A DNA stretch of 64,000 nt from assembly GCA_018821365.1 (NCBI GenBank), contig JAHJML010000174.1, forward strand, positions 10,067 to 74,066, written 5' to 3'. The position numbers were made by a program, and so were the translations under genes. This document shows positions 6,658 through 59,245 of this stretch, one piece after another. The notes beneath the pieces are model-generated. The model did no database searches, was not told the DNA's origin, and saw only the letters and a list, made by a program, of their open reading frames with translations. This stretch comes from Actinomycetota bacterium (lineage in GTDB: Bacteria; Actinomycetota; Acidimicrobiia; Spongiisociales; UBA11373). Position 1 is the stretch's first letter. The number at the start of each line of letters is the position of its first letter.

Positions 6658-7235
6658 CCGATGCTCAGCTCAAGGGCCGCCGGCCGATCTTCTGGATCTC
6701 GGTCGGCGCCGGCCTGGTCGCGTTGATCCTTCTGGCGGTTGCCCTCGCCGATGGGTTCGGGCGGGATCCCCGGGAGCCCGAGAACATCGCCAACCAGGGC
6801 GCCAAGATCGACATGACCAGGGTGCTGCCGTTGCTCGATGGGACGGGCGATGTGGCCTTCTCCGAACTGGAGGGGAAGATCATCGTGATCAACTTCTGGG
6901 CCTCCTACTGCATCCCGTGCCGGGCCGAGCATGAGGTGCTGACCACCGCATCGGAGCAGTATCGGGATCAGAACGTCCAGTTCCTCGGCATCGTCTTCCA
7001 CGACGACCCGGACGCCGCCCGTGACTTCCTCGACACCCTCGGCTGGGGCGACGGGTATCTCTACGCGGAGGATCCCGGGGCGCGGGCCACCGTGGACTTC
7101 GGGGTGTGGGGGGTACCGGAGACCTACTTCGTCGATGCCACCGGCACCATCGTCGACAAGCATTACGGAGCGATCACCCGCGACGACCTCATCCCCGTGC
7201 TCGAATCCATCCTGGCAGGCGACTCGGCCGGCTGA
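6654..7235 (+). CDS. ccmG: thiol:disulfide oxidoreductase CcmG/DsbE (TlpA/ResA family thioredoxin)
   Basis: ATG overlaps the ccmI stop (ATGA). N-terminal TM anchor; thioredoxin fold with active site WASYCIPC. Confidence 0.75.
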   Translation: MTDAQLKGRRPIFWISVGAGLVALILLAVALADGFGRDPREPENIANQGAKIDMTRVLPLLDGTGDVAFSELEGKIIVINFWASYCIPCRAEHEVLTTASEQYRDQNVQFLGIVFHDDPDAARDFLDTLGWGDGYLYAEDPGARATVDFGVWGVPETYFVDATGTIVDKHYGAITRDDLIPVLESILAGDSAG

Positions 7236-7257
7236 GCGGCGGGGATCTTTCTCCCGC

Positions 7258-7276
7258 TAGGGGACTTTTGGCCCTA
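7258..7276. promoter_or_regulatory. imperfect palindrome TAGGGGAC-TTTT-GGCCCTA, 55 nt upstream of the nonahaem cytochrome start (candidate operator, site a)
   Basis: Read directly. Same motif recurs at 9989-10006 and 17426-17443 upstream of two other multihaem cytochrome genes. Confidence 0.4.
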
Positions 7277-7331
7277 CGCGAAGTGCTCCCCCAGCGGCCA
7301 GAATGACCCCGGACGCTGCTGGGGAGACTGT

Positions 7332-8456
7332 GTGAAGGCGCAAAGAACTCACGTTTGGAGAGGATGGCGTCTCGTCGTCCTCGGGTGTGGCGCCGCCGCC
7401 GCGGCGCTGGTGCTGGTCGTGACGACGGGTTCGGCTTCTGCACAGGAGGAACAGGCCCCCCAGTTCGACAGCGAGTACTGCCTCGGTTGCCACGCCAACC
7501 CGGGAATGCAGACGACGCTGCCCTCCGGCGAGGTGCTCGACCTGACCTTCGATGTCGCCGCCCACGAGGCATCCGTCCACGGCCCCTACGACATCCCGTG
7601 TGTCCTGTGCCACACCGACGTCACCGGCTTCCCCCACGAACCGCTCGACGTGGCGGACCTGCGGGTCTGGACCCTCGAGCGAAACCAATCGTGCGCCAAC
7701 TGCCACGAGGACGAGGCGGAGAGCGCCCGGGACAACGTGCACGCCGCCGCGCTCGCCACCGGGGTGCGCGAGGCGGCGGTCTGCACCGACTGCCACGACG
7801 CCCACAATGCCCGCAAGCCGGTGGCGCACACGCCGGAGGTGGCCGAGACCTGCGGTGAGTGCCACGGCGAGATCTACCAGTTGTACGAGGGATCGGTCCA
7901 CGGCGAGGCACTCGCCACCGGTAATCGCGACGTTCCCACCTGCACCGACTGCCACGGGGTGCATGACGTCGGGGGTCCCAGCCAGTCAGAGTTCCACCTG
8001 TTCTCGCCGCAGATCTGCGCCGGGTGCCACCAGGACAAGGAGTTGATGGACCGCTACGGCGTCCGGGCCGACACCTTCGACACCTACATCGCCGATTTCC
8101 ACGGTGAGACGGTGGTGCTGTTCGAGGCGCTGGCGCCGGGTCAGGAGACCAACAAGCCGGTCTGCATCGACTGCCACGGGGTCCACAACATCCAGAGCGC
8201 CGACAATCCCGACAGCCAGACGTTCAAAGACAACATCCTCGGCACCTGCCAGCGCTGTCATCCCGATGCGTCGATCAACTTCCCCTCGGCATGGCTGGGC
8301 CACTACACCCCCTCGGCCGACAACGCCCTGCTGGTGTGGCTGGCCGGTTGGTTCTACAAGATCGTCATCCCGGTGACCATCGGCGGGATGCTCGGCTATG
8401 TCGTGCTGCTGAGCTTCAGGAGCAGGCGCTCCCGCAAGGAGGCCGCCCGTGGCTGA
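7332..8456 (+). CDS. nonahaem c-type cytochrome, signal peptide plus C-terminal TM anchor
   Basis: Nine CxxCH: CLGCH, CVLCH, CANCH, CTDCH, CGECH, CTDCH, CAGCH, CIDCH, CQRCH. N-terminal signal peptide and C-terminal hydrophobic helix. GTG start with GGGGAGA RBS. Confidence 0.85.
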   Translation: MKAQRTHVWRGWRLVVLGCGAAAAALVLVVTTGSASAQEEQAPQFDSEYCLGCHANPGMQTTLPSGEVLDLTFDVAAHEASVHGPYDIPCVLCHTDVTGFPHEPLDVADLRVWTLERNQSCANCHEDEAESARDNVHAAALATGVREAAVCTDCHDAHNARKPVAHTPEVAETCGECHGEIYQLYEGSVHGEALATGNRDVPTCTDCHGVHDVGGPSQSEFHLFSPQICAGCHQDKELMDRYGVRADTFDTYIADFHGETVVLFEALAPGQETNKPVCIDCHGVHNIQSADNPDSQTFKDNILGTCQRCHPDASINFPSAWLGHYTPSADNALLVWLAGWFYKIVIPVTIGGMLGYVVLLSFRSRRSRKEAARG

Positions 8457-9888
8457 TCGCTACCGCAGGTTCAACCTCTCGGATCGCCTCGAGCACGTTG
8501 CCCAGTTGACCGCCTTCACCGCACTGGCGGTCACCGGCTTGGTGCAGCGCTACTCGGAGGCCTGGCTGTCGCGGCGCCTCATCGACCTGCTTGGTGGCAT
8601 CGAGGCCGTCCGGATCATCCACCGAATCTTCGCCACGATCCTGATGGTGGCCGTCGTCTACCACCTGGGTGCGATCGGCTACCGCAAGTTCGTGCAGCGC
8701 CGCCCCAGGGAGATGCTCCCCACCAGCGCCGACATCCGGGCGGCCGCTCATTCGATGCGGTACCTGGCCGGCCGCGAGGCCGCCCCGCCTCTTCAGGGCC
8801 GTTTCACCTGGGAGGAGAAGGTCGAGTACTTCGCCCTCGTCTGGGGGACGTTCGTGATGATCGTGAGCGGTTTCCTGCTGTGGAACCCGATCGCCACCTC
8901 CAGGCTCCTCCCCGGGCAGTTCGTCCCGGCCGCCAAGGTGTTCCACAGCGGAGAAGCCCTGCTGGCCGTGCTGGCGGTGATCGTGTGGCACATGTACCAC
9001 GTCCACATCAGGCGCTTCAACACCTCGATGTTCACCGGATACATGAGCCGCCGGGACATGGCCCACGAGCACGCCCTGGAACTCGAGGCGATCGAAGCGG
9101 GCACCGCCTTCACGCCCCCGACCGACGATGCGTCTCGCCGCCGGGCCAAGATCTATCTGCCCGCCATCACCGGCGTGGCCGCCATCTTGCTGGGCGGCAT
9201 CTACCTGTTCGTCACCTTCGAGAACACCGCCATCGCCACCATCGATCCCCCCGAGCAGGTGGCCATCTATGCGCCGGTCGAGACCACCGGGACCACCGGG
9301 GCCACCGTGGTGACCACCACGACCCTCCCGGGTGCGACGACATCGACCACGACTCCGCTGGGAGCGTGGGAGGACACCATCGAGGCGATCTTCCGCACCC
9401 AGCGCTGCACGGATTGCCACGGCAACACCATGGCGCTGGGCGGCGTCGACCTCGCCACCTACGCTGGGGTGCTGGCCGTGGTCACTCCCGGTGATCCCGA
9501 CCGGAGCCCCCTGATCGTGCTGCAGGAGAAGGGGGCCCACCCGACGGTCCTCGACGACGGGCAACTGGCGCAGGTGCGGGCTTGGATCGCCGCCGGCGCC
9601 CTCGAGGCGCTGGGTGGCACTCCCCCGACGGGGGTGCCCGGCGGTGCGCCCGGTTGGGAAGACCCGATCTCCGGCTTGCTCGCTTCGTGCGGCTCGTGCC
9701 ACGGCGCTGCCAATCCGGCGGCGGGGCTCGACCTGACCAGCTACGAGGCTGCTCTCGCGGTGATCACTCCCGGGGACCCGGACGCCTCACGGCTCTACGT
9801 GGTCCAGGCCGCCGGGGGCCACCCGGGGCAGCTCAGCGAGGCCGACCTGGCCGTCCTCAGGGAGTGGATCGCGGCAGGCGCCCCGTAG
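8449..9888 (+). CDS. dihaem b-type membrane cytochrome (HydC/FdnI / Ni-Fe hydrogenase cytochrome-b family) fused to two c-haem domains of PSCyt1 type
   Basis: GTG start overlaps the upstream stop (GTGGCTGA). Four or five TM helices with His pairs (RIIHRIF, HMYHVH). A Thr-rich linker follows, then CTDCHGNTMALGGVDLATY... and CGSCHGAANPAAGLDLTSY..., i.e. CxxCHG-(x)n-GLDL[TS]SY modules. Confidence 0.8.
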   Translation: MADRYRRFNLSDRLEHVAQLTAFTALAVTGLVQRYSEAWLSRRLIDLLGGIEAVRIIHRIFATILMVAVVYHLGAIGYRKFVQRRPREMLPTSADIRAAAHSMRYLAGREAAPPLQGRFTWEEKVEYFALVWGTFVMIVSGFLLWNPIATSRLLPGQFVPAAKVFHSGEALLAVLAVIVWHMYHVHIRRFNTSMFTGYMSRRDMAHEHALELEAIEAGTAFTPPTDDASRRRAKIYLPAITGVAAILLGGIYLFVTFENTAIATIDPPEQVAIYAPVETTGTTGATVVTTTTLPGATTSTTTPLGAWEDTIEAIFRTQRCTDCHGNTMALGGVDLATYAGVLAVVTPGDPDRSPLIVLQEKGAHPTVLDDGQLAQVRAWIAAGALEALGGTPPTGVPGGAPGWEDPISGLLASCGSCHGAANPAAGLDLTSYEAALAVITPGDPDASRLYVVQAAGGHPGQLSEADLAVLREWIAAGAP

Positions 9889-9988
9889 CAGCCGGCCGGA
9901 TCCTTCGCGGCCGGTTGGAGTGGGCATCCCGGGTGCCGCGGTGGCTTCGATCGCGGCGGTCGCGCTCCCCGTGAGGCGTCCCTGACAA

Positions 9989-10006
9989 TAGGGCCAGAGG
10001 TCCCTA
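9989..10006. promoter_or_regulatory. imperfect palindrome TAGGGCC-AGAG-GTCCCTA, 55 nt upstream of the ImcH-like gene (site c; an extra GTCCCT half-site lies immediately upstream)
   Basis: Read directly. It is the reverse complement of the arrangement at sites a and b. Confidence 0.4.
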
Positions 10007-10061
10007 TGAGCGAGCACCTCCCATCTCCTAGCGTGGGTCCAGCACAGAGGGGAGACGTGAA

Positions 10062-11666
10062 GTGAGCGATCAGACGGACGACGGCATCGTCGAGGAACCC
10101 GCCGGCACCGACGGGATGAACCAGGTCCCGCCGACCGGGGCGCCGCCCGGCAAGGACGCCGACGGCCGTTCCCCCACGAACATCTTCACTTTCCCGATGA
10201 CGGCCATCGGGGGTGGCATGGTGCTCGCCGGTGTGGTCGCCTTCTTCGTTCTGATGCTGATCGACCTGACCAGCCAGACCGAGAACCCGTATCGGGCCAT
10301 CGTCACCTGGCTGGCGATCCCGGCGGTCATCACCCTTGGTCTCGTGATCGCAGTGATTGGGATCGTCGTCCGATCCCGGATGGCCCGGCGCCGCGGGGAG
10401 AGCATCCGATTCCTGCTGCGGATCGAGCCCTCCAACCCTCGCTACATGCGCAACCTGTGGCTGTTCCTCGGGTTGGCGGCCGTCCTGATCGTCCTGGTCG
10501 CCTACGGCGGCATACGTGCCTATGAGACCACCGAATCGGTCGCCTTCTGCGGAGAGGCGTGTCACGAGGTGATGGGGCCCCAGAACACCACCTACCTCGC
10601 ATCCGCCCACGCCAGGGTCCCCTGCACCGAGTGTCACATCGGCCCGGGACGGTCCTTCTGGGTCAAGTCCAAGCTCGACGGCATCCGCCAGGTGTGGAAG
10701 ACGATGACCAACACCTTCGACCGTCCGATCGCAACCCCGGTGACCAGTCTGCGCCCCGCCCAGGAGACCTGCGAGCACTGTCACTGGCCCGAGCAGTTCT
10801 ACGGGCAGCAGTTGGTGAACCTCAGCTACTACCGGAGCGACGAGGCCAACTCGCCGTGGACGATCAGCCTGCTGGTCAACGTGGGCGGCGGGAACCCCCG
10901 CACCGGTACCGCCGAGGGCATCCATTGGCACATGATCACCAACAACACCATCGAGTACATCGCCGTGGATCGCGATCGCCAGGAGATTCCGTGGGTGCGC
11001 CTCAACCGGGAGGACGGGACCCAGGTGGTGTACGCCGATCCGGACGCCGGCATCGGCCCCGACTCCCCCGGGGTCGAGGTCCGCACCTTCGACTGCATCG
11101 ACTGCCACAACCGGCCGAGCCACACGTTCGAGCCGCCGGCGACCGCCATCAACCTCCGCATCGCCCAGGGCAGCATCTCCCGGGACCTGCCGTTCATCCG
11201 CCGGGTGGGCCTCGACCTGCTCAACGCCGAATACCAGACCACCCCGGAGGCCAACGAGGCCATCCCGGCCGGCTTGGTGGCCTTCTACGCGGCGGAGTAC
11301 CCCGACGACGTAGAGGCGTTTCGGGCGGACATCGATCGGGCGGCAGAGGCACTGGTGAAGATCTACGACGGCAACTTCTTCCCCGAGATGAAGACCGACT
11401 ACCGGGTGCGGGTGAACAACCTGAGCCACTTCACCAACGACGGCTGCTTCCGGTGCCACAACACCGACCTCGTCTCCGACCAGGGCATCGGCATCGGCAC
11501 CGCCTGCGACACCTGCCACTCGATCGTGGCGCAGGGGCCCTCGGAGGACGTCAACGAGTTGCAGAGTGACCTGGGTGGCCTGGAGTTCGAGCACCCGGTC
11601 GACATTGGCGGCGTATGGGATCGTATCAAGTGCACCCAGTGCCACACCCCCGCTCAGGGGTACTGA
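10062..11666 (+). CDS. heptahaem NapC/NirT-family c-type cytochrome with two N-terminal TM helices (ImcH-like)
   Basis: Seven CxxCH: CGEACH, CTECH, CEHCH, CIDCH, CFRCH, CDTCH, CTQCH. N-terminal TM helices; the first two haems have NapC/NirT-like spacing. GTG start, RBS AGGGGAGA. Confidence 0.8.
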   Translation: MSDQTDDGIVEEPAGTDGMNQVPPTGAPPGKDADGRSPTNIFTFPMTAIGGGMVLAGVVAFFVLMLIDLTSQTENPYRAIVTWLAIPAVITLGLVIAVIGIVVRSRMARRRGESIRFLLRIEPSNPRYMRNLWLFLGLAAVLIVLVAYGGIRAYETTESVAFCGEACHEVMGPQNTTYLASAHARVPCTECHIGPGRSFWVKSKLDGIRQVWKTMTNTFDRPIATPVTSLRPAQETCEHCHWPEQFYGQQLVNLSYYRSDEANSPWTISLLVNVGGGNPRTGTAEGIHWHMITNNTIEYIAVDRDRQEIPWVRLNREDGTQVVYADPDAGIGPDSPGVEVRTFDCIDCHNRPSHTFEPPATAINLRIAQGSISRDLPFIRRVGLDLLNAEYQTTPEANEAIPAGLVAFYAAEYPDDVEAFRADIDRAAEALVKIYDGNFFPEMKTDYRVRVNNLSHFTNDGCFRCHNTDLVSDQGIGIGTACDTCHSIVAQGPSEDVNELQSDLGGLEFEHPVDIGGVWDRIKCTQCHTPAQGY

Positions 11667-11687
11667 TCGGCACCTAGCCGCCAACTC

Positions 11688-11724
11688 GAGAGGCCCCGGG
11701 TTCCCCCTCTACCCGGGGCCTCTC
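11688..11724. terminator. GC-rich hairpin (14-bp stem GAGAGGCCCCGGGT/ACCCGGGGCCTCTC, 9-nt loop) between convergent genes; candidate bidirectional terminator
   Basis: Perfect inverted repeat read directly. Lies between the stop of the ImcH-like gene (11666) and the stop of the bc-complex operon (11819). Confidence 0.5.
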
Positions 11725-11818
11725 TGCGCGGCATCCCGGGTGCACCGGGCTAACCCGGCAGCGGCTCGTCGACAACGACACCCGCCGGCGCCTGAGCGAG
11801 CCTGTGCGGCCGTGCCGC

Positions 11819-13912
11819 TCAGTTGTCGGGTGCCCCCTGGCGGATCCAGGCGAGGATCGCATCCACCTCGGTGGTCGGGAGGGACCCGGAGGGCGGCATG
11901 AACCCGCCTGTCCCGGTGCCGAGCAGCCATTGGCCGAGGAGGCTGTTCTCCGCATCGCCGGGGATGACCGCGGGTCCGCTGTTGCCGCTCGCCATCACCG
12001 ACTGGTACGACTCGGCCGACCATCCGCCGGACGCTCCGTGGCACGCCAGGCACTTCGACTGGAAGATGGGCAGCACGTCGCCCGAGAAGGACACCTCCGC
12101 AACCGGCCCGGGGGTGCCCGGTCCGCCCTGCAGCGAGCGGATCAACTCGACCAGTCCGGAGATCTGCTCGTCGGTGAGGATGTCCCCCCAGCCGATCATG
12201 GCGGTGGCCGGGTGGCCGAGGTCGATCGTCTCGAACAACTGGCTGTCGGAGTGGATCGCCTGCCACTCCGGAGATTGGAACGAAGGCCCGATCCCGCCCT
12301 CCCCGTCGGCGCCGTGGCATTGGGCACAGAACCCTGCGTAGATGTCGGCGACATCCACCAGCAACGGGGCCCGCTCGACCGCCGGCGGGAGCTCGACCGG
12401 AGGGTTGTCCTGCCAGGACCGGATGTAGGCGACGATCGCCCCCACCTCGTCGGCGTCCAGGGGGCCGCCGAAGGCCAGGCCGAAGGGTGACATCCCCGAG
12501 TCGGGCTGCCCCTGGGTGATGATGGCCCTGATGGTGATGTAGTCGCGGGTCACCAGGTACTGCTCGGTGCTGATCGGGCCGATCGTGAAGGATGGATCGA
12601 CCGGGCTGGCCCCTCCCTCCCCGAACTCGCCGTGGCACACCGTGCAGTGCTGCTCGAACAGGGTCTTTCCGAGCACGGCAGGCGAACCCTGGCTGGCCTC
12701 ATAGGCGTAGTCGGTCAGGGCGTCCAATTGCTCGGCGGTGAGCACGTCGCCCCAGACCGGCATCGTTTGGTGGGAACCACCCTTGACGATGATCTCGGTG
12801 GCGGCTTCCACCGACTCGGCCACCGGAACCCGGGTTCCGTGGCACACGGCGCAGTCGGCCTCGAAGAGGGCAGCACTCGAAGCGGGCGCCGTGTCGGGGG
12901 CCACCACGTAGGCGGCCAGAGCGGCGATGTCGGCATCGGGGAGGACTCCGCCCATCGCCGGCATCGTCAGATGCCCCCCACCCTTCTCGATGATCGCCAG
13001 CAACTCGTTGCGCGTTCCGGCGAACTGGGCGCTGTTGCCGTGACAGGCGGCGCAGTTGAGCACGAACAGACGGTGTCCGTCGGGTGCGATGAGGAAGTTG
13101 ACGAGGGCGGTCGCCGAACTCTCGTCGAGCGAGGGGAGGTCGAGGCCCGCGTGCGGTTCGAACTCCGAGCCGGGCTGGAGGGCCGCCCGGAGGGTGAGCG
13201 GTTGGGTGGCAGCCAGGCCGACCGCCTGGTGGCACCCCGAACAGGAGTCCTGGAACACGGCGCTGCCGTTGGGCGAGAGGACGAAGCCGACCAGGGCGTC
13301 GATCTCGTCTGAGGAAAGGTCGCCGCTCCAGGCCGGCATCCCCTCGTGGCCGCCCTGGGAGATCACGTCGCCGAGATTGACTCCGGCGGGAACGGCGATC
13401 GAGGTGCCGTGGCACCCCGAGCAGTTCTCGGTGTAGAGGAGGGCGACCGGGTCGCCGCCGGCGGCCTCGAGGGGCGGTTCCGCCGCCAGCAGCGCCTGCA
13501 CGGTGAGGCCCAGCACCCCGAGGAAGAGGAACACCACGAACCCGAGGACGATGGGACGCCCCCGGATGTTGCGGGTGCGGGATCGATCCAGCCATGGGAG
13601 TGCCGCCAGGATGAGGAGGATCGCCCCGGGCAGGATGATCACGCCGACAAACTCCAGGTTCCCCGGGAAGAACTTGAGCAACTGGAAGAGCCAGAGGAAG
13701 TACCACTCGGGCCGGGGTGTGAACGAGTCGTCGGACGGGTTGGCCTGGTCGCCCAGTTCGGCACCGATCACGGCGGAGAGCACCACCAACGCCACGAACA
13801 CCAGCAGGGAGACTATGGCGTCCTTGAACAGGGCGTTGGGGAAGAACGGGATGCCCCGCTTCTTGTCCTCCTGGTACTTCTCCAGGTAGTCACGCCTGTC
13901 CTGTTCCCGCAT
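11819..13912 (-). CDS. cytochrome b C-terminal domain (subunit IV / QcrC-like) fused to seven class-I cytochrome c domains
   Basis: N-terminus has three TM helices and the PEWY motif (PEWYFLWLFQLLKFFP) of cytochrome b / subunit IV. Then seven CxxCH (CSGCH x2, CAACH, CAVCH, CTVCH, CAQCH, CLACH), each followed about 40-60 aa later by a Met-Pro axial-ligand-like motif. Confidence 0.85.
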   Translation of the reverse strand: MREQDRRDYLEKYQEDKKRGIPFFPNALFKDAIVSLLVFVALVVLSAVIGAELGDQANPSDDSFTPRPEWYFLWLFQLLKFFPGNLEFVGVIILPGAILLILAALPWLDRSRTRNIRGRPIVLGFVVFLFLGVLGLTVQALLAAEPPLEAAGGDPVALLYTENCSGCHGTSIAVPAGVNLGDVISQGGHEGMPAWSGDLSSDEIDALVGFVLSPNGSAVFQDSCSGCHQAVGLAATQPLTLRAALQPGSEFEPHAGLDLPSLDESSATALVNFLIAPDGHRLFVLNCAACHGNSAQFAGTRNELLAIIEKGGGHLTMPAMGGVLPDADIAALAAYVVAPDTAPASSAALFEADCAVCHGTRVPVAESVEAATEIIVKGGSHQTMPVWGDVLTAEQLDALTDYAYEASQGSPAVLGKTLFEQHCTVCHGEFGEGGASPVDPSFTIGPISTEQYLVTRDYITIRAIITQGQPDSGMSPFGLAFGGPLDADEVGAIVAYIRSWQDNPPVELPPAVERAPLLVDVADIYAGFCAQCHGADGEGGIGPSFQSPEWQAIHSDSQLFETIDLGHPATAMIGWGDILTDEQISGLVELIRSLQGGPGTPGPVAEVSFSGDVLPIFQSKCLACHGASGGWSAESYQSVMASGNSGPAVIPGDAENSLLGQWLLGTGTGGFMPPSGSLPTTEVDAILAWIRQGAPDN

Positions 13913-13916
13913 ACGG

Positions 13917-14576
13917 CTACTCCCCCTTCTTGGGAGGCGCCGAGATGCCGTTGCGCACCACCAGGTAGAGGTGGAGGCCCACCAGGAGCAGCAGGATCGC
14001 CGGCAGCACCCACACGTGGATCCCGTAGAAGCGGGACAGGGTCACCGCGCTCAGGTCGTCCCCGCCCCTCGCCACCCGCAGCGCCCAGTCACCGATGAGC
14101 GGCGTCACCTCCAACATGCGGGTGCCCACCACGGTGGCCCAGTAGGCCTTCTGGTCCCAGGGAAGCAGGTACCCGGTGAACCCGAACGCCAGCGTCAGTA
14201 CCAGCAGCCCCACCCCCGACAGCCAGGTGATCTCCCGCGGGAACTTGTACGCCCCGTGGTAGATCACCCGCACCATGTGGAGCCCGACCAGCAGGACCAT
14301 GGCGCTGGCCCCCCAGTGGTGCATGCCCCGGATCAGCCACCCGGCGGTCAGGTCGTGGGAGATGAAGTCGACGGTGGCGTAGGCATCCTGGACACTGGGC
14401 ACGTAGTAGATGGTGAGGAGGATCCCGGTGATGATCTGATTGACCACCACGATCAAGGTGGCGCTGCCGAGGGTGTAGGCCCAGTTGACCTTGGGCACCT
14501 GGCGGAGGAACACCCCATCCCAGACGAGGCGCCACCCGGTTCGCTCATCCAGCCAGCCGCCGACCCGGTCGCTCAT
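13917..14576 (-). CDS. cytochrome b6 (N-terminal four-helix dihaem-b domain of a split cytochrome b)
   Basis: 219 aa with conserved His pairs in helices B and D (GMHHWGASAMV..HMVRVIYHG ... FYGIHVWVLP) and the TGYLLPWDQ motif. Confidence 0.9.
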   Translation of the reverse strand: MSDRVGGWLDERTGWRLVWDGVFLRQVPKVNWAYTLGSATLIVVVNQIITGILLTIYYVPSVQDAYATVDFISHDLTAGWLIRGMHHWGASAMVLLVGLHMVRVIYHGAYKFPREITWLSGVGLLVLTLAFGFTGYLLPWDQKAYWATVVGTRMLEVTPLIGDWALRVARGGDDLSAVTLSRFYGIHVWVLPAILLLLVGLHLYLVVRNGISAPPKKGE

Positions 14577-14577
14577 C

Positions 14578-15051
14578 TCACGCCTCCAGGCTCACGAAGA
14601 TCTGGCCGTCCTCCACCTTGACGGGGAACTCATCCAGACCCCTCGGCGGCGGGCCGGCGACCACCTGCCCGTCGACACTGAAGACGCCGTTGTGACAGGG
14701 GCAGAAGAACTCGTTCTGGTCGGCGACCCAGCGGACCCGGCACCCGAGGTGCGTGCAGACGTTGGAGAACCCCCTGAACTCGCGACCGTCGTGGGTGACG
14801 ACGTAGACGGCCACCTCCGCCTCGGTGGAGACCCATCCACTGGTCTTGGTGACCTTCGCCTTGAAGAGGGAGGGCGTTCCAATGTCGACTCGATCAGCGG
14901 CGCCGAGTACGATCCACTCCGCCTCGCCCGTCTTCTTCTTGGCCGGGCTCAGCACGTAGGCAACCCCCGGTACCGCCCAGCCGATCCCGATGGCGGCGGC
15001 AATGGCAACGGTGGCTCTACTGAGGAACTTCCGCCGGTCCATTGGTGCCAT
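14578..15051 (-). CDS. Rieske [2Fe-2S] iron-sulfur protein, Tat-exported
   Basis: Twin-arginine signal RRKFLSRATVAIAAA. Rieske boxes CTHLGC and CPCHNG. Confidence 0.9.
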   Translation of the reverse strand: MAPMDRRKFLSRATVAIAAAIGIGWAVPGVAYVLSPAKKKTGEAEWIVLGAADRVDIGTPSLFKAKVTKTSGWVSTEAEVAVYVVTHDGREFRGFSNVCTHLGCRVRWVADQNEFFCPCHNGVFSVDGQVVAGPPPRGLDEFPVKVEDGQIFVSLEA

Positions 15052-15190
15052 GGTGCTCGCCCTTCCCCGGAAACCCCGTCGTTCGGCATTCCTAGCGGAA
15101 AGCGTTCGGCGCGCCGTCCACCCGGGACGTTCGGACTCTAGCCAGCGCCTCTCACGTCCGCAGCCGTGTCGGAAAGGCGTCCGCCGGACG

Positions 15191-15223
15191 CCAAGGGGCC
15201 CGGGATGACCCCGGGCCCCTTGG
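15191..15223. terminator. GC-rich hairpin CCAAGGGGCCCGGG-atgac-CCCGGGCCCCTTGG downstream of the decahaem cytochrome gene
   Basis: 14-bp perfect stem read directly. Lies between the decahaem gene stop (15242) and the Rieske start (15051). No U-tract, as is common in high-GC genomes. Confidence 0.45.
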
Positions 15224-15241
15224 TCCTTGCGAGAGGTGCGA

Positions 15242-17362
15242 CTACGGCCGGGTGTAGCCGGTCACATCCCCACCGACGTTCTCGATCGAGTCGATCAGCA
15301 ACTGGATCACGTACTTGCCGTTGTGGGCGAATCCACCCGGATCCTTGACGGCGTACTGGTAGTTGTAGGCCGAGCCAAGCAGCGCCGGTGTCCACATGCC
15401 GAACGCCTCATCACCACTGAAGAAGTACGGATACCGGTTCGGGTCGTAGATCAGGTCCCCGAGGCCGTATGCCTCGGAATAGGCCTGGAGCGCTGCGTAG
15501 AGGTCAGCCCGGAGGGTGTCGATCTCTCCGTACAGTCCTTCGGCCGCGTCCCCGTCACCGTCGAAGTCGCCCTCGCTGATGCGGAACGCCATCGGGTCGT
15601 CGCTGCCGTGGCAGCCTGCGCACGACTCGACCTTGACCTCCAGGGTGTGGGACCCATGGCATTCGGTGCAGGTGTCGAAACCCTCGACATGGGCATTGCG
15701 ACCCGCGTACTCCTTGCCGGCGAACTGGAACCCGCCCTGCACCTCCCCTCCGAACAGGGTCGCCCCTGCTGGGAAGTAGTGCACGTTGCGGAACCGCAAA
15801 CCCTCGACGACGTCGTTGGGTCCGGCATCGCCGATGGCCGCATTGACGCTGACCGTGGACTCGCGTCCCTGGTGGCAGTTCATGCAGAGATTGCCGTCGG
15901 CGCTCCCGCTGTCGACCTCGAGCCCGCTCGGGAACTCGACTGGGCCTGCCTCGTGGCGAGTCCAGGTGGTGAAGTCGTTGTGGCAGGTCGAGCACAGGAA
16001 GCCGTTGCTGGGCTCCTGGCTGACGGTGACGCCCTCAGCGAGGAACAGCGGCAAGCCGGCTGCACTGTGGCACTTGGAGCACGACGCCGGCACCACTGCC
16101 GGGTCGTCCTCGTCCCAGTGGCGGAAGGCCTCCTCAGAGCCGGCGAAGTGCCCATGGTCGATGCGATGGGCCGCATCGACGGCGATCGGGCTGCTCAGCA
16201 CCGAGTTGAGGTCCTCGGTGGAGTCGCTCAGCAACTGGAGGATGTACTTGCCGCCGTGGGCGAACGCCCCCGGATCCTTCAAGGCCACCTGATAGTTGTA
16301 CGCCGCCCTCACGAGGCGCGGAGTCCAGGCCGGGTAGGCATTGCCGAAGTTGGCCTCGCCCTCGGTCACGGCCCCGTCGCCGTCGGTGTCGGCGAAGAAG
16401 TACGGATAGGTCAGACCGTCGTAGACAAGCCCGGTGCCCACGGTCTCGGAGGCATACGCCTGCATCGCCAGATACAGCGTGGCGGTCGCGCCCTCGATCT
16501 CGTAGTAGATGCCTTCGGCCAGGTCGCCGTCGCCGTCGTAATCGACCAGAGAGCCCATCATGCGGACGTTCTTCAGGTCGTCCGCCGAGGTCACTCCGAC
16601 GTGACACGTGGCGCATTCCTCGATCTTGAGTTCGAGGCTGTGCGGATTGTGGCAATCCACACAGGTCTCGTAACCCTCGATGTGGGTGAAGAAGGCGTCA
16701 TAGGTCCCGCCTTCGTACTGGTAGCCGCCCATCGCCTCGTTGCCGTACTTGGTGGCTGCGGCGGCAAAGTAGTGGATGTTGATGAACCCGAGATCTTCGC
16801 TGACTTCGTCGTCACCAACGCCGGCGGCGGTGATCGCCTCGTCCACCGTCACCTTGGATGCCCTGCCCTGGTGGCAGGTCATGCAACGAGCCTCTGCACC
16901 CAGGCCGGTCAGCTCGACACCGGATGGCATCGTCACGCTGTCCAGGGCCAGGGTGGCCGCGTTGTGACAGGTCGTACAGGTGATGGTCGTGTCGGGATCG
17001 TGGGCAGCGTCGACGACTCCGGCAGCGCTCCCGTCGGCGCCGACGAAGTCCTGGAAGCCGGTACCGACGTGGCACTTGGCACAGGACTCGGGCACGACCG
17101 CCGGGTCGTCCCCGTCCCAGTGTCGGAAGGCTTCGGCGTCGGCGGCATTGTGGGCAGACGCCTCCCATGCTGCGAGGAACGGGATCTCGACCGCAGGCTC
17201 CACCACCACGGGGACCGTGGTGGTGGTCGCCGGCGCCTCGGTGGTGGTCACCGGGGCGGCGGTCGTAGTCGTTCCTGCGTCGTCGCCGCTACAGGCGGCG
17301 ATGACCAGGGAGAGGGCTGCGAGCAGTGCGCCGATCGTCGACAGCCTGGATCGATGGGTCAT
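15242..17362 (-). CDS. decahaem c-type cytochrome lipoprotein with internal pentahaem duplication
   Basis: Lipobox LSLVIAACSG followed by a Thr-rich linker. Ten CxxCH: CAKCH, CTTCH, CMTCH, CVDCH, CATCH, CSKCH, CSTCH, CMNCH, CTECH, CAGCH. The two halves are clearly homologous (AFRHWDGDDPAVVPESCAKCH vs AFRHWDEDDPAVVPASCSKCH). Confidence 0.85.
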   Translation of the reverse strand: MTHRSRLSTIGALLAALSLVIAACSGDDAGTTTTAAPVTTTEAPATTTTVPVVVEPAVEIPFLAAWEASAHNAADAEAFRHWDGDDPAVVPESCAKCHVGTGFQDFVGADGSAAGVVDAAHDPDTTITCTTCHNAATLALDSVTMPSGVELTGLGAEARCMTCHQGRASKVTVDEAITAAGVGDDEVSEDLGFINIHYFAAAATKYGNEAMGGYQYEGGTYDAFFTHIEGYETCVDCHNPHSLELKIEECATCHVGVTSADDLKNVRMMGSLVDYDGDGDLAEGIYYEIEGATATLYLAMQAYASETVGTGLVYDGLTYPYFFADTDGDGAVTEGEANFGNAYPAWTPRLVRAAYNYQVALKDPGAFAHGGKYILQLLSDSTEDLNSVLSSPIAVDAAHRIDHGHFAGSEEAFRHWDEDDPAVVPASCSKCHSAAGLPLFLAEGVTVSQEPSNGFLCSTCHNDFTTWTRHEAGPVEFPSGLEVDSGSADGNLCMNCHQGRESTVSVNAAIGDAGPNDVVEGLRFRNVHYFPAGATLFGGEVQGGFQFAGKEYAGRNAHVEGFDTCTECHGSHTLEVKVESCAGCHGSDDPMAFRISEGDFDGDGDAAEGLYGEIDTLRADLYAALQAYSEAYGLGDLIYDPNRYPYFFSGDEAFGMWTPALLGSAYNYQYAVKDPGGFAHNGKYVIQLLIDSIENVGGDVTGYTRP

Positions 17363-17425
17363 GTCACTCCTCCCGCAAGGTGCGGCTAACTACCCGATAT
17401 CCTTGCAGCCCCGCATGCCGCCGCT

Positions 17426-17443
17426 TAGGGACTTTCGGCCCTA
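17426..17443. promoter_or_regulatory. imperfect palindrome TAGGGAC-TTTC-GGCCCTA, 63 nt upstream of the decahaem cytochrome start (site b); also 182 nt upstream of the divergent PQQ dehydrogenase gene
   Basis: Read directly; near-identical to site a. Confidence 0.4.
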
Positions 17444-17625
17444 ATCGACCGGGTGTCGGATTCGCCGGTTCCGGCAGGGCATCGGCCGATCGGCATCGTG
17501 CTGGTGGAGCCCAGGGTTGCCTCCGCGGCGGAACCCGTGGCCGGGTCGATCTCGCGGTGGGGGCGCACCACCAACCGGGAGTCGACGCGGCGTCGTGACG
17601 GCTTCCCTGGCATCATGAGGCCTCC

Positions 17626-18990
17626 ATGACCGTCCGTCCCCCCACTCGCCGGCCCGAAGAGCGCTTCCCGGGATTCCTCTTCACCCCCGCCAATCGTCCG
17701 TTCACATTGATCCTGGTCGTTGCCGTGGCTGTCCTGGCAGGCTATCTGCTGGTGGGAGGCGACTCGGGATCGACGGCTGCCCCCTCCTCGACCACGGTCG
17801 CCGGGCCGGCGACCAGCACCGCCGAGACGGATTCCACCGCCGGGACCACCCAGGATGCCACCACCACCTCACCGACGGTCGCTCAATCGGGAGTCACCGA
17901 GGCGGCCGACATCCCGCTGCAGGGTCTGGCGCTGGAGACCGTGGCACGGGGGTTCACCTTCCCGGTCTACGCAACCTCGCCGCCCGGCGACGGGAGGGTG
18001 TTCGTTGTGGAACGGGCCGGCCTCATCCGCATCGTCGATCCCGGCGGGAGTGTGCTGCCGAACCCCTTCCTCGACATAAGCGACCGCATCGACAGCGCCA
18101 GCGGTATCGAGTTGGGCCTCCTCGGCCTCGCCTTCCACCCTCAGTACGCCGCCAACGGGCGTTTCTTCGTCTACTACTCGGATCTGAACGCCGACTCGGT
18201 GGTCGCCGAGTTCTCGACGAGCGCCGACCCGAACCTGGCCGATCCGGATTCCGAGCAGGAGATACTGTTCGTGGATCAGGTTCGCCTCCGCCACCGCGGT
18301 GGCATGCTGCTCTTCGGACCCGACGGCTACCTCTACATCGGCCTCGGCGACGGCACCGACCACAACGTGAACCCGCAGAACCTCGAGACCCTGCCGGGCA
18401 GCATCCTCCGCATCGACATCGACGGCGGGGATCCCTATGCGATCCCCGCCACCAACCCCTTCGCATCGGCCGAGGGCAGGCCGGAGATCTGGGCGTACGG
18501 GTTCCGCAATCCGTGGCGGTTCTCCATCGACCCCGTGAGCGGCCGCCTCTACGTCGGAGATGTCGGTGAGGAGTCGTGGGAGGAGATCGATTCCGTCGCT
18601 CTCTCCAACTCGGGGAGCAACTTCGGGTGGCCGCTCATGGAGGGGTCCACCTGCTTCACCGACGCCGAGTGCGGGAGCCGGACCGATCTGGTCCGGCCGA
18701 TCCTGCAGTACCCCCACGAAGGAGACCAGTGCGCGGTCACCGGCGGCTACGTCTACCGGGGGTCGGCGATCCCCGAGATGGTGGGGCACTACTTCTACGC
18801 CGACTGGTGCGCCGGGTGGATCCATTCGTTCCTCTACGACGGCGAGAACGTCACGCTGCCCCAGGATTGGTCGGTCTCGATCGGAACCGACCACGGGTCG
18901 ATCGCCTCGTTCGGCCTCGATGGTGCCGGTGAGTTGCTGGTGGTCACTTCCGACACCGGTGACATCTTCCGGGTGGTCGCGGCCCGTTGA
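17626..18990 (+). CDS. PQQ-dependent sugar (glucose/sorbosone) dehydrogenase family beta-propeller, membrane-anchored
   Basis: N-terminal TM, Ser/Thr-rich linker, then a sGDH-like propeller (GFTFPVYATSPPGDGRVFVVERAGLIRIV..., GFRNPWRFSID). Confidence 0.7.
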   Translation: MTVRPPTRRPEERFPGFLFTPANRPFTLILVVAVAVLAGYLLVGGDSGSTAAPSSTTVAGPATSTAETDSTAGTTQDATTTSPTVAQSGVTEAADIPLQGLALETVARGFTFPVYATSPPGDGRVFVVERAGLIRIVDPGGSVLPNPFLDISDRIDSASGIELGLLGLAFHPQYAANGRFFVYYSDLNADSVVAEFSTSADPNLADPDSEQEILFVDQVRLRHRGGMLLFGPDGYLYIGLGDGTDHNVNPQNLETLPGSILRIDIDGGDPYAIPATNPFASAEGRPEIWAYGFRNPWRFSIDPVSGRLYVGDVGEESWEEIDSVALSNSGSNFGWPLMEGSTCFTDAECGSRTDLVRPILQYPHEGDQCAVTGGYVYRGSAIPEMVGHYFYADWCAGWIHSFLYDGENVTLPQDWSVSIGTDHGSIASFGLDGAGELLVVTSDTGDIFRVVAAR

Positions 18991-56003: not shown

Positions 56004-56089
56004 GCCGGGATGGCGGAATGGTAGACGCGACGGACTCAAAATCCGTTGAGCTCACGCTCGTGGGGGTTCGACTCCCCCTCCCGGTACCA
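56004..56089 (+). tRNA. tRNA-Leu (anticodon CAA), type II, CCA encoded
   Basis: GCCGGGATGGCGGAATGGTAGACGCGACGGACTCAAAATCCGTTGAGCTCACGCTCGTGGGGGTTCGACTCCCCCTCCCGGTACCA. Anticodon loop CTCAAAA. Confidence 0.85.
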
Positions 56090-56430
56090 GCGGGGCGCGG
56101 CTTGGTGTTACTGCAGATGCTTCGACGCGGTTGGCGCTCCGGAAATGGAGGGTTCCCGCGTCGGAGCGGCTCCAAGTACCAACCGGTCCGCCCCACGGCA
56201 AGGGGGTAGGGTTCGACTCCCCCTCCCGGTACCAGCGGGGCGCGGCTTGGTGTTACTGCAGATGCTTCGACGCGGTTGGCGCTCCTGAAATGGAGGGTTC
56301 CCGCGTCGGGCTGGCTCCAAGTACCAACCGGTCCGCCCCACAGCAAGGGGGTCGGGTTCGAGTCCCCCTCCCGGTACTAGCGGGGCGCCGCTTGGTGCCA
56401 CTGAAGGTTCTTGCACGCGATTGACCGTCA
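56090..56430 (+). repeat. tandem array of two 145-nt units plus a diverged partial third; each unit ends in a 26-nt copy of the tRNA-Leu(CAA) 3-prime end (att-like core)
   Basis: Unit 1 56090-56234 and unit 2 56235-56379 are about 95% identical. Both end ...GGGTTCGA(C/G)TCCCCCTCCCGGTAC(C/T)A. Unit 3 diverges after about 25 nt. Confidence 0.75.
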
Positions 56431-56550
56431 CCCGGATCGCGATGCTCCGTCAGGCGGTGGCGATCGTGCTCCTGCTCGTGGTGCGCTCGATCATGGGGAG
56501 GCGGCGCAAGGCCTGAGGGCGAGGCACGGCCGCTTTCAGCCGACCTCGCT

Positions 56551-57084
56551 ATGCTTCGGTTTCGAAGGGTAGACCTGATGTCGCCGAGGCGGCTCATTGT
56601 CGGGATCGTTGCCCTGCTCGTGTCAGGGTGCGGGGCTGCCGCTCAACCCCAGCCCGGGGTCCGCTTCGTGGCAATACTGCCCGTTCCTGTCGACCAGGCG
56701 TCGCGGGCGGTGCTCACCTTCGACATCTCCGATGACGGCAGGCTCATCGAGTACCTGCTCCTCGATCTCACCGATCTCGAATGTGCCACCGTTGGCGCCG
56801 AGCGCTCGAACTTCGTGCAACTCGTCGACGCACCGATCGAGGCCGGACGGTTCACCGTTGAGAGCTCGGGCGTCGGGGTGCTCAGCGGACAATTCGTGTC
56901 CCCGACCCATGCCCGCGGCGAGGTGACGCTGCACATCGACACGCTCGGGGCGCTCACCAACTTCATCATCCACGACCCGGACGCCTCGTGCGACCTGGGC
57001 ACCTACCAATGGGAGGCCGAGGCTGCCGGCGAGGCGCCGTCGATGCCGACGGCGCCCTCCCTGCCCTCCGAGGTCGTGCCGTAG
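56551..57084 (+). CDS. hypothetical lipoprotein
   Basis: Lipobox LLVSGCGAAAQ. Likely start at the internal ATG approx 56578. Confidence 0.45.
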   Translation: MLRFRRVDLMSPRRLIVGIVALLVSGCGAAAQPQPGVRFVAILPVPVDQASRAVLTFDISDDGRLIEYLLLDLTDLECATVGAERSNFVQLVDAPIEAGRFTVESSGVGVLSGQFVSPTHARGEVTLHIDTLGALTNFIIHDPDASCDLGTYQWEAEAAGEAPSMPTAPSLPSEVVP

Positions 57085-57507
57085 GGCGTCGCCGGTGCCC
57101 GGGCTACCTCTTCACACACATGTCGTCGGCAGAGCACCACCGCCAGTGGAACGGTGCCACGATGCCCCGGTCAGTTCCTTTCTCGAAGGAGACACAGATG
57201 ATCACCCGGTCGAGTCCCAGATTGGCGATTCCCCGTTGACCAGCGGGCAGATCACGGAAGCATCCTGCGTGGCCACCGTAGAACGTGGCGCTCGGCGGTC
57301 TCGTCACGGTTCCTCCGGCCGAGGACGCACGGTCGACGACTCGGTCGACTTCGTCGCTTGAGCGCACGTTGTGAGCGAGCGCCAGGGGTCCCGAGGGGGC
57401 GTTGATGTGACCATCCCCTGGGCCCCCCTGGGCCAGCGTGCAGGAAGGTCATCGGAGGTCGAGAGCACACCGGAAGCTCTCATCTGAGTCTGTCCGGGGA
57501 GGGCGTG

Positions 57508-58053
57508 TCAGGCTGGCCGCAGTGTCACCTCCCAGCTGCAGTTGTCCACGTACTCTGAGGAAGGTCCAGTGGGTTCAGTGACTAGCCGAAACTCATCGGA
57601 AGGCAAGACGTCGGACACCAGCTCTTGCGTGTCGGACACGCTGCCGGGGTCATCAGGGGCGGAGTAGGTGAGCCACCAGTAGACGTCCTCAGGGCCGAAG
57701 GCACTGCTCTTCTCAATCCTGACAACCATTGCGCACGAGCCGTCGTCGATGTAGCTGGCGGTCGCCTCGACGATGTAGCGGTTGGATGGCCCCGGTAGGG
57801 GGAAGGGTTCTGAGGTGAAGGCACCGGTGCCGGAGAGGTGCACGGCTCCCTCCGCAAGGGTGGTGGTGCCCAGCGTGGTCGTTGTAGGTGGTGGTTCAGT
57901 TGTGGTTGTGGGCTGTGTTTCGGTCGTGGTCGCCTGACTACCGGTGGTGATCGAGGTGGATGCCCCAGTGGTAGTGAGGGTGCCCCCGTCGTCGCCACAG
58001 GCAGTGAGCATGAGAGACACCAGTGTGAGGACGAGGGCCGCTCGGGTCCGCAT
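57508..58053 (-). CDS. hypothetical lipoprotein with Thr-rich linker
   Basis: Lipobox LMLTACGDD followed by T-rich low complexity, then a globular domain. Lower GC than the window average. Confidence 0.5.
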   Translation of the reverse strand: MRTRAALVLTLVSLMLTACGDDGGTLTTTGASTSITTGSQATTTETQPTTTTEPPPTTTTLGTTTLAEGAVHLSGTGAFTSEPFPLPGPSNRYIVEATASYIDDGSCAMVVRIEKSSAFGPEDVYWWLTYSAPDDPGSVSDTQELVSDVLPSDEFRLVTEPTGPSSEYVDNCSWEVTLRPA

Positions 58054-58274
58054 GTCAAGCCTCCCCCTGGCGTTGTGATAGCAGGATACCCGGCGTGTGG
58101 TCTTCTTTGACTTGTCCGGACAAACGCGACTCGCCGCGGTGAACGGTCAAGCTGCCCCGTCAGCCGAGGGTGAGCGGCAGCGAGAAGTCGACTCTGGTGA
58201 AGTGTCCGCAGGGATCCTGAGGGACCGTTTCACGTACCCCGTCTGAGGATCAGTCTGAACCACCGGCCCGGCAG

Positions 58275-58706
58275 GTGGAGTTGGAGTACCTTGAGGGAGA
58301 GCAATTGGAGGTGTGTGTCACGCCCAAGACATGGTCGGCCATACTGATTGGGCTCGGTGTCACGGTTCTCACCTTCGTGATCCTTAGAGCATTCAGCGAC
58401 GACTTCTTGAGGGTGAGAGACGGCGGTAACTTCCGCCTCAGCCTTGTCTGGATGGTGATCCTGGGGTTTGGTATCGGTGGCGCGGCGCTGGCAGGAGTGA
58501 GGTATCACCCGCTCGTCGCGGCCGTCCCGGCAGTCCTCCTATTGGCCCTCTACGTTCCGGTCTTCAAGGATCTGATGGCTCCGAGTTGGTACCCGGAGTG
58601 GGTCAGGGCTGGGGTGTTGCCCGCGTTCAGTCCGGTGCCGTTCACGATCATTGGCGTGCTCGGCTTTTCGAGCCTGTGGTCGGCCTGGAATCGATGGCGC
58701 GACTGA
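58275..58706 (+). CDS. hypothetical four-TM membrane protein
   Basis: Hydrophobic helices and coherent lower-GC codon usage. Confidence 0.4.
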   Translation: MELEYLEGEQLEVCVTPKTWSAILIGLGVTVLTFVILRAFSDDFLRVRDGGNFRLSLVWMVILGFGIGGAALAGVRYHPLVAAVPAVLLLALYVPVFKDLMAPSWYPEWVRAGVLPAFSPVPFTIIGVLGFSSLWSAWNRWRD

Positions 58707-59245
58707 TGCCGTGCCAGCATCACGTCATCTGGGTCCTCCATTCCTGAAGGCAGCGGAAGCGGTCGTCTTACGGGGGTCGTCAGGGTCCGAGGACCACCGC
58801 CGTCCCCTCGGCCGGCGTGCCCTTACCAGATGGGTGAGAGGCTGAATCGAATTGCAGTGAACTTCTGACAGAGGTGCCGAGGGGCCCCTGACCCAACAGC
58901 ACCCTGGGGTGACGATTCCTCATCAGCTGCCCGCGCTGGTGAGAAGCGTCAGAGAGTCCGGCCCCCGGTCCTCCGAGCCACCCCCCACCTCCAGGCCGCA
59001 CTGCAATCCGCAGCGGGCGGTGCAACCAGTGGCCAAAGCCGGGGCCGACTTGCCTCCTGGTTGGCGATCGATGCTTGTTGAGCCCCAGAGGGGAGCCGCT
59101 CCGCCACTCGCGGCGGCCGACGTCACCTGCTCGGCCTATCGGCGTAGGGTGTGGGGATAGAAGATCTGGGGCCTGCTGCCCTGAGGCTTCCAAGCAGTTG
59201 GTTCCCGGATTGCAGCCAGCATCAGTGATGCGAAGGGAGAGCGAA

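Follow-up and report, generated by a model that had tools for sequence, protein, structure and literature searches.

Probable DevR/DosR-type operators upstream of three multihaem cytochrome transcription units in an Acidimicrobiia genome

Regulators of the DevR/DosR/OsdR type belong to the NarL/LuxR family and are known from Mycobacterium and Streptomyces. DevR, a NarL-family response regulator controlled by haem-based sensor kinases for O2, nitric oxide (NO) or carbon monoxide (CO), binds as a dimer to an operator that has been experimentally defined in Mycobacterium tuberculosis: this Dev box is 18 bp long, its positions G3-G5 and C7 are conserved, two of them (G5 and C7) being essential, and its half-site reads G3-G4-G5-(A/T/C)6-C7, with exactly four bases from C7 to G12. 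In the same organism every DevR promoter carries at least two boxes, the proximal one lying 33-34 nt from the mapped transcription start and the box centres falling at -42.5 and -63.5. A stringent DosR consensus, GGGACTTNNGNCCCT, has been applied to Mycobacterium smegmatis (PMC6448022), and the OsdR consensus of Streptomyces coelicolor is AGGGCCGATCGGCCCT (PMC5069765). Here we analyse a 64,000-nt stretch of DNA from an Actinomycetota bacterium of the class Acidimicrobiia (contig JAHJML010000174.1, positions 10,067 to 74,066; hereafter the window), in which three short palindromes stand upstream of multihaem cytochrome genes, and we conclude from their sequences that they are very probably 18-bp Dev boxes, the operators of a DevR/DosR/OsdR-type regulator.

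The palindromes had been picked out in a sequence-only reading of the window, whose coordinates, sequences and distances to the start codons all proved correct. Box a (AGGGGACTTTTGGCCCTA, 7259-7276) lies 5' of a nonahaem cytochrome operon, 55 nt from its GTG start codon at 7332; box c (TAGGGCCAGAGGTCCCTA, 9989-10006) is likewise 55 nt from the GTG at 10062 of an ImcH-like gene; and box b (TAGGGACTTTCGGCCCTA, 17426-17443) is 63 nt from the ATG at 17362 of a decahaem cytochrome gene on the minus strand. Site a had been delimited as a 19-bp element at 7258-7276, and while its sequence stands, the extra base comes from taking the outer TA as anchor; as an 18-mer at 7259-7276 it shares with the other two sites an identical 18-bp geometry, NNGGGNC-N4-GNCCCNN, around the core GGGNC-N4-GNCCC. 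The description of site c as a reverse-complement arrangement says little about a palindrome; boxes b and c are oriented alike with respect to their genes, and box a is opposite. The pattern TAGGG-N7-11-CCCTA matches three times in the window vs. 0.03 times expected from dinucleotide-preserving shuffles, none of 100 of which gave three matches, and the exact sites have the spacing TAGGG-N8/9-CCCTA. Mismatch searches and scans with three matrices found no further copy in the 64 kb, inside genes or elsewhere, and the dispersed repeat of the repetitive extragenic palindromic (REP) kind, with which the sequence-only reading had reckoned, is rejected on these grounds.

As 18-mers, all three boxes fit the inverted-repeat definition of the Dev box. 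Boxes a and b match GGGACTTNNGNCCCT exactly and box c matches it on the reverse strand with one mismatch; the central positions 9 and 10 are TT in boxes a and b and G9 A10 in box c. A first matrix, built from 15 orthologous sites that all come from other genomes, ranks box b first in the window (25.1 bits), box a second (18.7 bits) and box c third (15.6 bits), with the next match at 7.2 bits. A second, independent of the window and compiled from 25 S. coelicolor OsdR sites in the literature (PMC5069765), places boxes b, c and a at ranks 1, 3 and 6 among 63,985 positions. As in the DevR-DevS/DosT systems of M. tuberculosis and M. smegmatis, then, the element is an 18-bp palindrome with GGGAC half-sites and conserved G5 and C7. 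It also shares its core with the operator of the S. coelicolor OsdR-OsdK system: the reverse complement of box b, AGGGCCGAAAGTCCCT, differs in its last base alone from a predicted 16-mer among the listed OsdR sites (PMC5069765). The OsdR consensus is, however, GC-rich at its centre (CCGNNCGG), whereas Acidimicrobiia centres are A/T-rich and in this respect mycobacteria-like. The operator match supports, and makes more precise, the earlier proposal of an operator for a dimeric, redox-responsive factor co-regulating the cytochrome genes.

Another NarL-family system, NarL/NarP of Escherichia coli, also controls anaerobic respiratory genes, including cytochrome c genes, through a dimer bound to an inverted repeat. 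Its sites, however, are of the 7-2-7 type with the half-site TACYYMT, and its sensor responds to nitrate, not to haem ligands. In both half-site and spacing the window motif departs from such sites, which it does not fit.

The position of the boxes relative to a conserved -10 element also conforms to the mycobacterial arrangement. When 34 promoters were aligned on the box and the hexamer NANNNT was scored by offset, it was found 21-23 nt 3' of the box in about 32 of them, with TANNNT in 22, vs. about one in 34 at any other offset. In the window, the predicted -10 elements are CAGAAT for the nonahaem operon (7299-7304, plus strand, 22 nt 3' of box a; predicted start ~7311), TAGCGT for the ImcH-like gene (10029-10034, plus strand, 22 nt 3' of box c; predicted start ~10041) and AAGGAT for the decahaem gene (17399-17404, minus strand, 21 nt 3' of box b; predicted start ~17392), and the promoters of ImcH orthologues carry TAGGCT, TAAGGT or TACGGT at the offset of the window's TAGCGT. 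With the -10 element set at -12 to -7, the predicted start is ~34 nt away from the box edge and ~43 nt from its centre, much as for the proximal box of M. tuberculosis, and a centre at about -43 would equal the activating position known in that organism. No canonical sigma-70-type -35/-10 pair is present in window positions 7000-18000, which fits promoters where an activator substitutes for the -35 contact and is again M. tuberculosis-like. The leaders that follow from the predicted starts are 21-30 nt long, with GGAG-rich ribosome-binding sites.

Phylogenetic footprinting, suggested in the sequence-only reading as a check, finds the sites kept at orthologous promoters of other genomes. Across 14 Acidimicrobiia genomes with rearranged gene order, boxes occur 5' of orthologues from the ImcH-like, nonahaem, decahaem and hexahaem groups. 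The window itself matches contigs from metagenome-assembled genomes of uncultured Actinomycetota/Acidimicrobiia, such as GCA_018819625.1. The closest other species in the genome collection (locus L003), whose ImcH-like protein is 72% identical to that of the window, retains it at all three promoters with flanking and spacer bases changed, and about 15 further Acidimicrobiia loci encode ImcH-like proteins that are 55-60% identical. In a second clade (L004, L006, L007, L008, L010, L019, L022 and L024), where the nonahaem operon has the inverted orientation and the decahaem gene a different location, the box still stands at the ImcH-like, nonahaem and decahaem genes; a third (L009, L013, L015 and L017) has boxes ahead of the ImcH-like gene and of a hexahaem cytochrome gene, and so does L005. 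Box c has equivalently placed counterparts in 12 other Acidimicrobiia loci, and box b is conserved in seven other loci. The majority-base frequency is 0.85-0.95 within the box vs. 0.47-0.64 in its flanks, and in an alignment of 30 Acidimicrobiia sites G5, C7, C14 and C16 never vary while G12 reaches 0.87, an invariance that is partly by construction because the sites were collected with patterns and matrices requiring these core bases. At about 60 non-actinobacterial ImcH-like loci (0.9 Mb), by contrast, only two matches reach at least 15 bits, so that the element follows the lineage and not the gene.

Candidate partners for the boxes are encoded in related genomes. Four of the box-bearing relatives (L009, L013, L015 and L017) encode, ~7 kb upstream of the ImcH-like gene and on the same contig, a protein that is 55-56% identical to M. 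tuberculosis DevR. An independent comparison confirms this: the closest solved relative of the L015 protein is DevR itself (3c3w, E 1.2e-67, 231 bits), followed by VraR at 154 bits. As a further likeness to M. tuberculosis, the DevR recognition helix LAEKTVKNYVS (residues 176-186, holding K179, K182 and N183) is identical in the L015-type protein and in all 120 of its best homologues, which come from Acidimicrobiia metagenomes and some of which have been named DevR by the Joint Genome Institute (JGI). K182 reportedly has a role in DNA contact, and we take K179 and N183 to act in the recognition helix as well. In these relatives the divergent neighbour of devR encodes a GAF-HisKA_3-HATPase kinase whose GAF domain has as its best solved relatives the haem-binding GAF-A domains of DosT (2vzw, E 4.9e-41) and DevS, with the histidine of the HHPPMR motif retained. 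The partner thus resembles the mycobacterial haem-GAF kinases; unlike them, it has a single GAF domain within 371-395 aa, and devR and devS are divergently arranged with no obvious autoregulatory box. All four DevR-like proteins that we traced belong to genomes other than that of the window, and one, P0023, is in the same metagenome-assembled genome (MAG), CAXMQV01, as locus L005, where the boxed cytochrome cluster lies on one contig (L005) and the devRS pair on another (L087).

The surroundings of devRS in Acidimicrobiia comprise genes for a universal stress protein, CBS/BON proteins, a CtpF-like P-type ATPase, a PNPOx-family protein and pyruvate phosphate dikinase. These gene kinds overlap with known regulon contents, namely pyruvate phosphate dikinase, PNPOx and universal stress proteins in Streptomyces (PMC5069765) and universal stress proteins and ctpF (Rv1997) in mycobacteria.

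Several observations nevertheless weigh against assigning the palindromes to DevR. The window and the 9.5 kb upstream of it contain no DevR-type, NarL-type or other response regulator gene, as judged by tblastn with DevR and by Pfam scans. The transcription starts on which the promoter geometry depends are predictions inferred from the position of the -10 element, and the conservation figures rest on sites that were found with core-requiring patterns and matrices. Position 9 of box c is a G in place of the usual A or T. No clear box lies between devS and devR in the Acidimicrobiia loci, which yielded weak candidates only (for example TTGGGACCTTCGGCCACA, 7.7 bits), so that autoregulation of the M. 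tuberculosis kind may be absent. Finally, each window promoter carries one strong box, unlike the obligatory tandem of M. tuberculosis, and a plausible upstream half-site is seen at box c alone; a matrix scan found no secondary boxes near the primary ones in the window, the matrix being too strict for degenerate sites. The half-site in question (GTCCC, 9978-9982) belongs to a tentative, degenerate secondary box read from the sequence at 9967-9984, 22 bp centre-to-centre 5' of box c. Among the relatives, several orthologous ImcH and nonahaem promoters likewise have a GTCCC half-site whose end is 6 nt short of the primary box. Tandem arrangements do occur there: L013 and L015 carry two boxes at the ImcH promoter, 20 bp apart, and in the nonahaem promoters of L006, L008, L010 and L019 AGTCCC half-sites repeat at 21-22 bp.

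The absence of a regulator gene from the window would also suit a different dimeric regulator, be it another NarL/LuxR paralogue or a member of an unrelated family with a convergent GGGNC-N4-GNCCC operator, responding to another signal such as a metal, nitrate or quorum. NarL-family regulators are indeed very numerous (8000 candidates at E <= 1e-30), and NCBIfam has no DevR-specific model, its best match, MadR, falling below the cut-off of that model. Yet the motif equals the DevR/OsdR operator base for base at the essential positions, the promoter position also matches that of DevR, and relatives that bear the box have DevR orthologues with an identical recognition helix. With nothing specific in favour of such a regulator, and with no other regulator of a GGGNC-N4-GNCCC operator known to us, we consider this unlikely. 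Should the boxes instead be repressor operators, a DevR-like or other dimer would sit over the -35 region and block RNA polymerase, and the cytochromes would be de-repressed upon its release. Both repression and activation are possible from a site overlapping the -35 position, and the evidence here is one of geometry; the lack of any -35-like hexamer or full sigma-70-type match is nonetheless typical of activator-dependent promoters, and DevR activates from this very position in M. tuberculosis, all of which makes repression quite improbable.

It is also conceivable that the palindromes act as hairpins in RNA or DNA, whether as a REP-like repeat, as a 5'-leader structure or, for site a, as a terminator after the ccm operon. 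Box a does lie 23 nt past the stop codon of a thioredoxin-like gene, and the sequences can form stems of 6-7 bp. Their folding is nevertheless unremarkable (z-scores of -0.8 to -2.1, with 6 to 42 of 200 shuffles folding equally well), no T-run or terminator-like site exists in 7000-18000, no Rfam family matches, and positions 6 and 13 vary without compensation, giving pairs such as A/G or T/T. The boxes lie upstream of the conserved -10 element and therefore outside the predicted transcripts, and the three copies in 64 kb each stand 5' of a multihaem cytochrome gene, which is not the pattern of a REP-like repeat. A hairpin function of any kind is thus extremely improbable, and the specific candidates of an RNA hairpin, terminator or riboswitch were rejected for their unremarkable folding, missing T-run and lack of an Rfam family.

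Taking the boxes, then, as probable DevR operators, the transcription units that they precede define the predicted targets, and their assignments by the sequence-only reading are upheld by gene calling (third-position GC and Pfam) and by haem-motif counts. The operon behind box a (7332-9888, plus strand) consists of two overlapping genes, for a nonahaem cytochrome c (7332-8456; nine CxxCH motifs) and for a cytochrome b/haem-c membrane protein (8449-9888; two CxxCH motifs), with the Pfam families Paired_CXXCH_1, Cytochrome_C7, Ni_hydr_CYTB and PSCyt1. Box c precedes the gene for an ImcH-like inner-membrane multihaem cytochrome of the NapC/NirT type (10062-11666, plus strand; Cytochrom_NNT), with six CxxCH motifs and one CxxxCH motif. 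The gene behind box b (15242-17362, minus strand) encodes a decahaem lipoprotein cytochrome with ten CxxCH motifs, the lipobox LVIAAC and an MtrC/MtrF-like domain (Cytochrome_C7, Mtrc-MtrF_II-IV_dom); as had been pointed out, box b also lies in the divergent region shared with a pyrroloquinoline quinone (PQQ)-dependent dehydrogenase, here a GSDH/PQQ-type gene at 17626-18990 on the plus strand.

We extrapolate binding, the sign of regulation (activation, not repression), the signal and the physiological role from M. tuberculosis and S. coelicolor. By this analogy, a histidine kinase of the DosT/DevS kind, equipped with a haem-binding GAF domain, would sense falling oxygen, or else NO, CO or the redox state, and phosphorylate the DevR orthologue. 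A DevR dimer would then occupy each box, centred ~43 bp before the transcription start in the usual place of the -35 element, and recruit RNA polymerase to promoters that have a -10 element alone. This would jointly switch on the nonahaem/cytochrome b operon, the ImcH-like, quinol-oxidising cytochrome and the decahaem lipoprotein, three units that look like a module for respiration on acceptors other than oxygen, possibly extracellular ones.

In its predicted targets, multihaem c-type cytochromes and an ImcH-like quinol oxidase, the system would differ from that of M. tuberculosis, whose regulon instead includes universal stress proteins, hspX, narK2, nitroreductases and others. The S. coelicolor OsdR regulon does include an alternative respiratory enzyme, the nitrate reductase NarG2, but cytochrome c targets have not been reported for OsdR. 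We give about even credence to the wider proposition that DevS/DevR oxygen sensing in Acidimicrobiia is wired to multihaem cytochromes (the ImcH-like quinol oxidase, the nonahaem/cytochrome b unit, and deca- and hexahaem lipoproteins), whereby oxygen limitation would directly switch on electron export or alternative respiration in a Gram-positive lineage, with genes that were perhaps horizontally acquired and then captured. The operator and its regulator family are already known from Mycobacterium and Streptomyces, and no new kind of regulatory mechanism is revealed; what appears to be new is a predicted regulon containing multihaem cytochromes in Acidimicrobiia, and a full-text literature search returned nothing linking multihaem cytochromes in Acidimicrobiia to DosR. 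Such cytochromes are uncommon in Actinomycetota, and cytochrome-based respiration would be added to the known reach of DevR/OsdR, which in Mycobacterium and Streptomyces covers dormancy and nitrate respiration. For organisms not yet grown, the identity of the box provides the testable hypothesis that these cytochromes are induced by low oxygen, NO or CO via DevS/DevR, and the box together with a -10 element at 21-22 nt offers a sequence handle for predicting the whole regulon in Acidimicrobiia MAGs.

The history of the ImcH-like gene itself deserves separate mention. The window protein is 55-60% identical to ImcH-like proteins of Zixibacteria and Ignavibacteriales MAGs (L011, L012, L014, L016, L018 and L020), which are as close to it as most Acidimicrobiia ones are and whose loci are free of the box. 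Horizontal acquisition of the cytochrome genes, followed by their capture into the DevR regulon, is therefore a possibility, and the comparison of these sequences suggests transfer of the ImcH-like gene with the regulatory site gained within the lineage.

Elsewhere in the window, the absence of a comparable box at ccmF and at the Rieske operon, as originally reported, is borne out: ccmF has none on its 5' side, and the Rieske gene is preceded by a degenerate half-site only, at 15122-15140. This Dev-like element (TAGAGTCCGAACGTCCCGG, minus strand) lies ~80 nt 5' of the Rieske start codon, with its right half-site GTCCC intact and its left half poor or shifted by one base; it scores 8.5 bits with the Streptomyces matrix, has no -10-like hexamer at 21-22 nt, and was not counted as a site. 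A perfect 14-bp inverted repeat (CCAAGGGGCCCGGG-gtcat-CCCGGGCCCCTTGG, 15191-15223, minus strand) begins 19 nt past the decahaem stop codon. Although it lacks a T-run, it is probably a terminator-type hairpin between the decahaem gene and the downstream Rieske/cytochrome b/cytochrome c operon, and therefore the box-b promoter may not drive that operon. At the far end of the window, from the tRNA-Leu(CAA) gene at 56004-56089 to position 64000, the GC content drops from ~0.69 to ~0.63 and the open reading frames have no Pfam match, barring that of a 677-aa WD40-repeat protein (60296-62329), which is itself not on record elsewhere; the region 56004-64000 may be an integrated island.

The related genomes provide further observations. 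CAXMQV01 is labelled 'uncultured Gammaproteobacteria', yet the gene content and synteny of L005 and L087 are Acidimicrobiia-like and its DevR-like regulator is 74% identical to that of L015; its label or binning looks wrong. In seven loci of the second clade (L004, L007, L008, L010, L019, L022 and L024) another conserved element, ATGCA-N7-8-GCATGTCA, lies 25-45 nt 5' of the decahaem-gene box; it is absent from the window and L003, and may be the site of another regulator.

Two further boxes precede operons of other kinds. A weak one (TAGGGTCGAAGGTCACAA, 12.8 bits; L083, 3204-3221) is found in the same species ~6.3 kb 5' of the window start and 58 nt 5' of an operon for a zinc alcohol dehydrogenase, an aminotransferase and a 2-oxoacid:ferredoxin oxidoreductase. 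It is kept in two MAGs and is followed by a second half-site, GTCCCTA, 22 nt past the box end, and its -10 spacing does not fit; the operon could be a further regulon member tied to anaerobic metabolism. The other (TCGGGACCAGCGGCCCTA, 15.3 bits; L091, 7644-7661, and L092, 4203-4220) stands ~100 nt 5' of a DrsE/TusA/sulfide-quinone-reductase-like operon, which in another Acidimicrobiia MAG adjoins a devS-devR-usp cluster. In six loci (L009, L013, L015, L017, L091 and L093) devRS is located beside menaquinone-biosynthesis-like genes, encoding a MenF-like chorismate-binding protein, a MenD-like thiamine pyrophosphate (TPP)-dependent protein, an alpha/beta hydrolase and a UbiA prenyltransferase, and in four loci these genes flank devRS on one side, with the ImcH-like cytochrome gene on the other.

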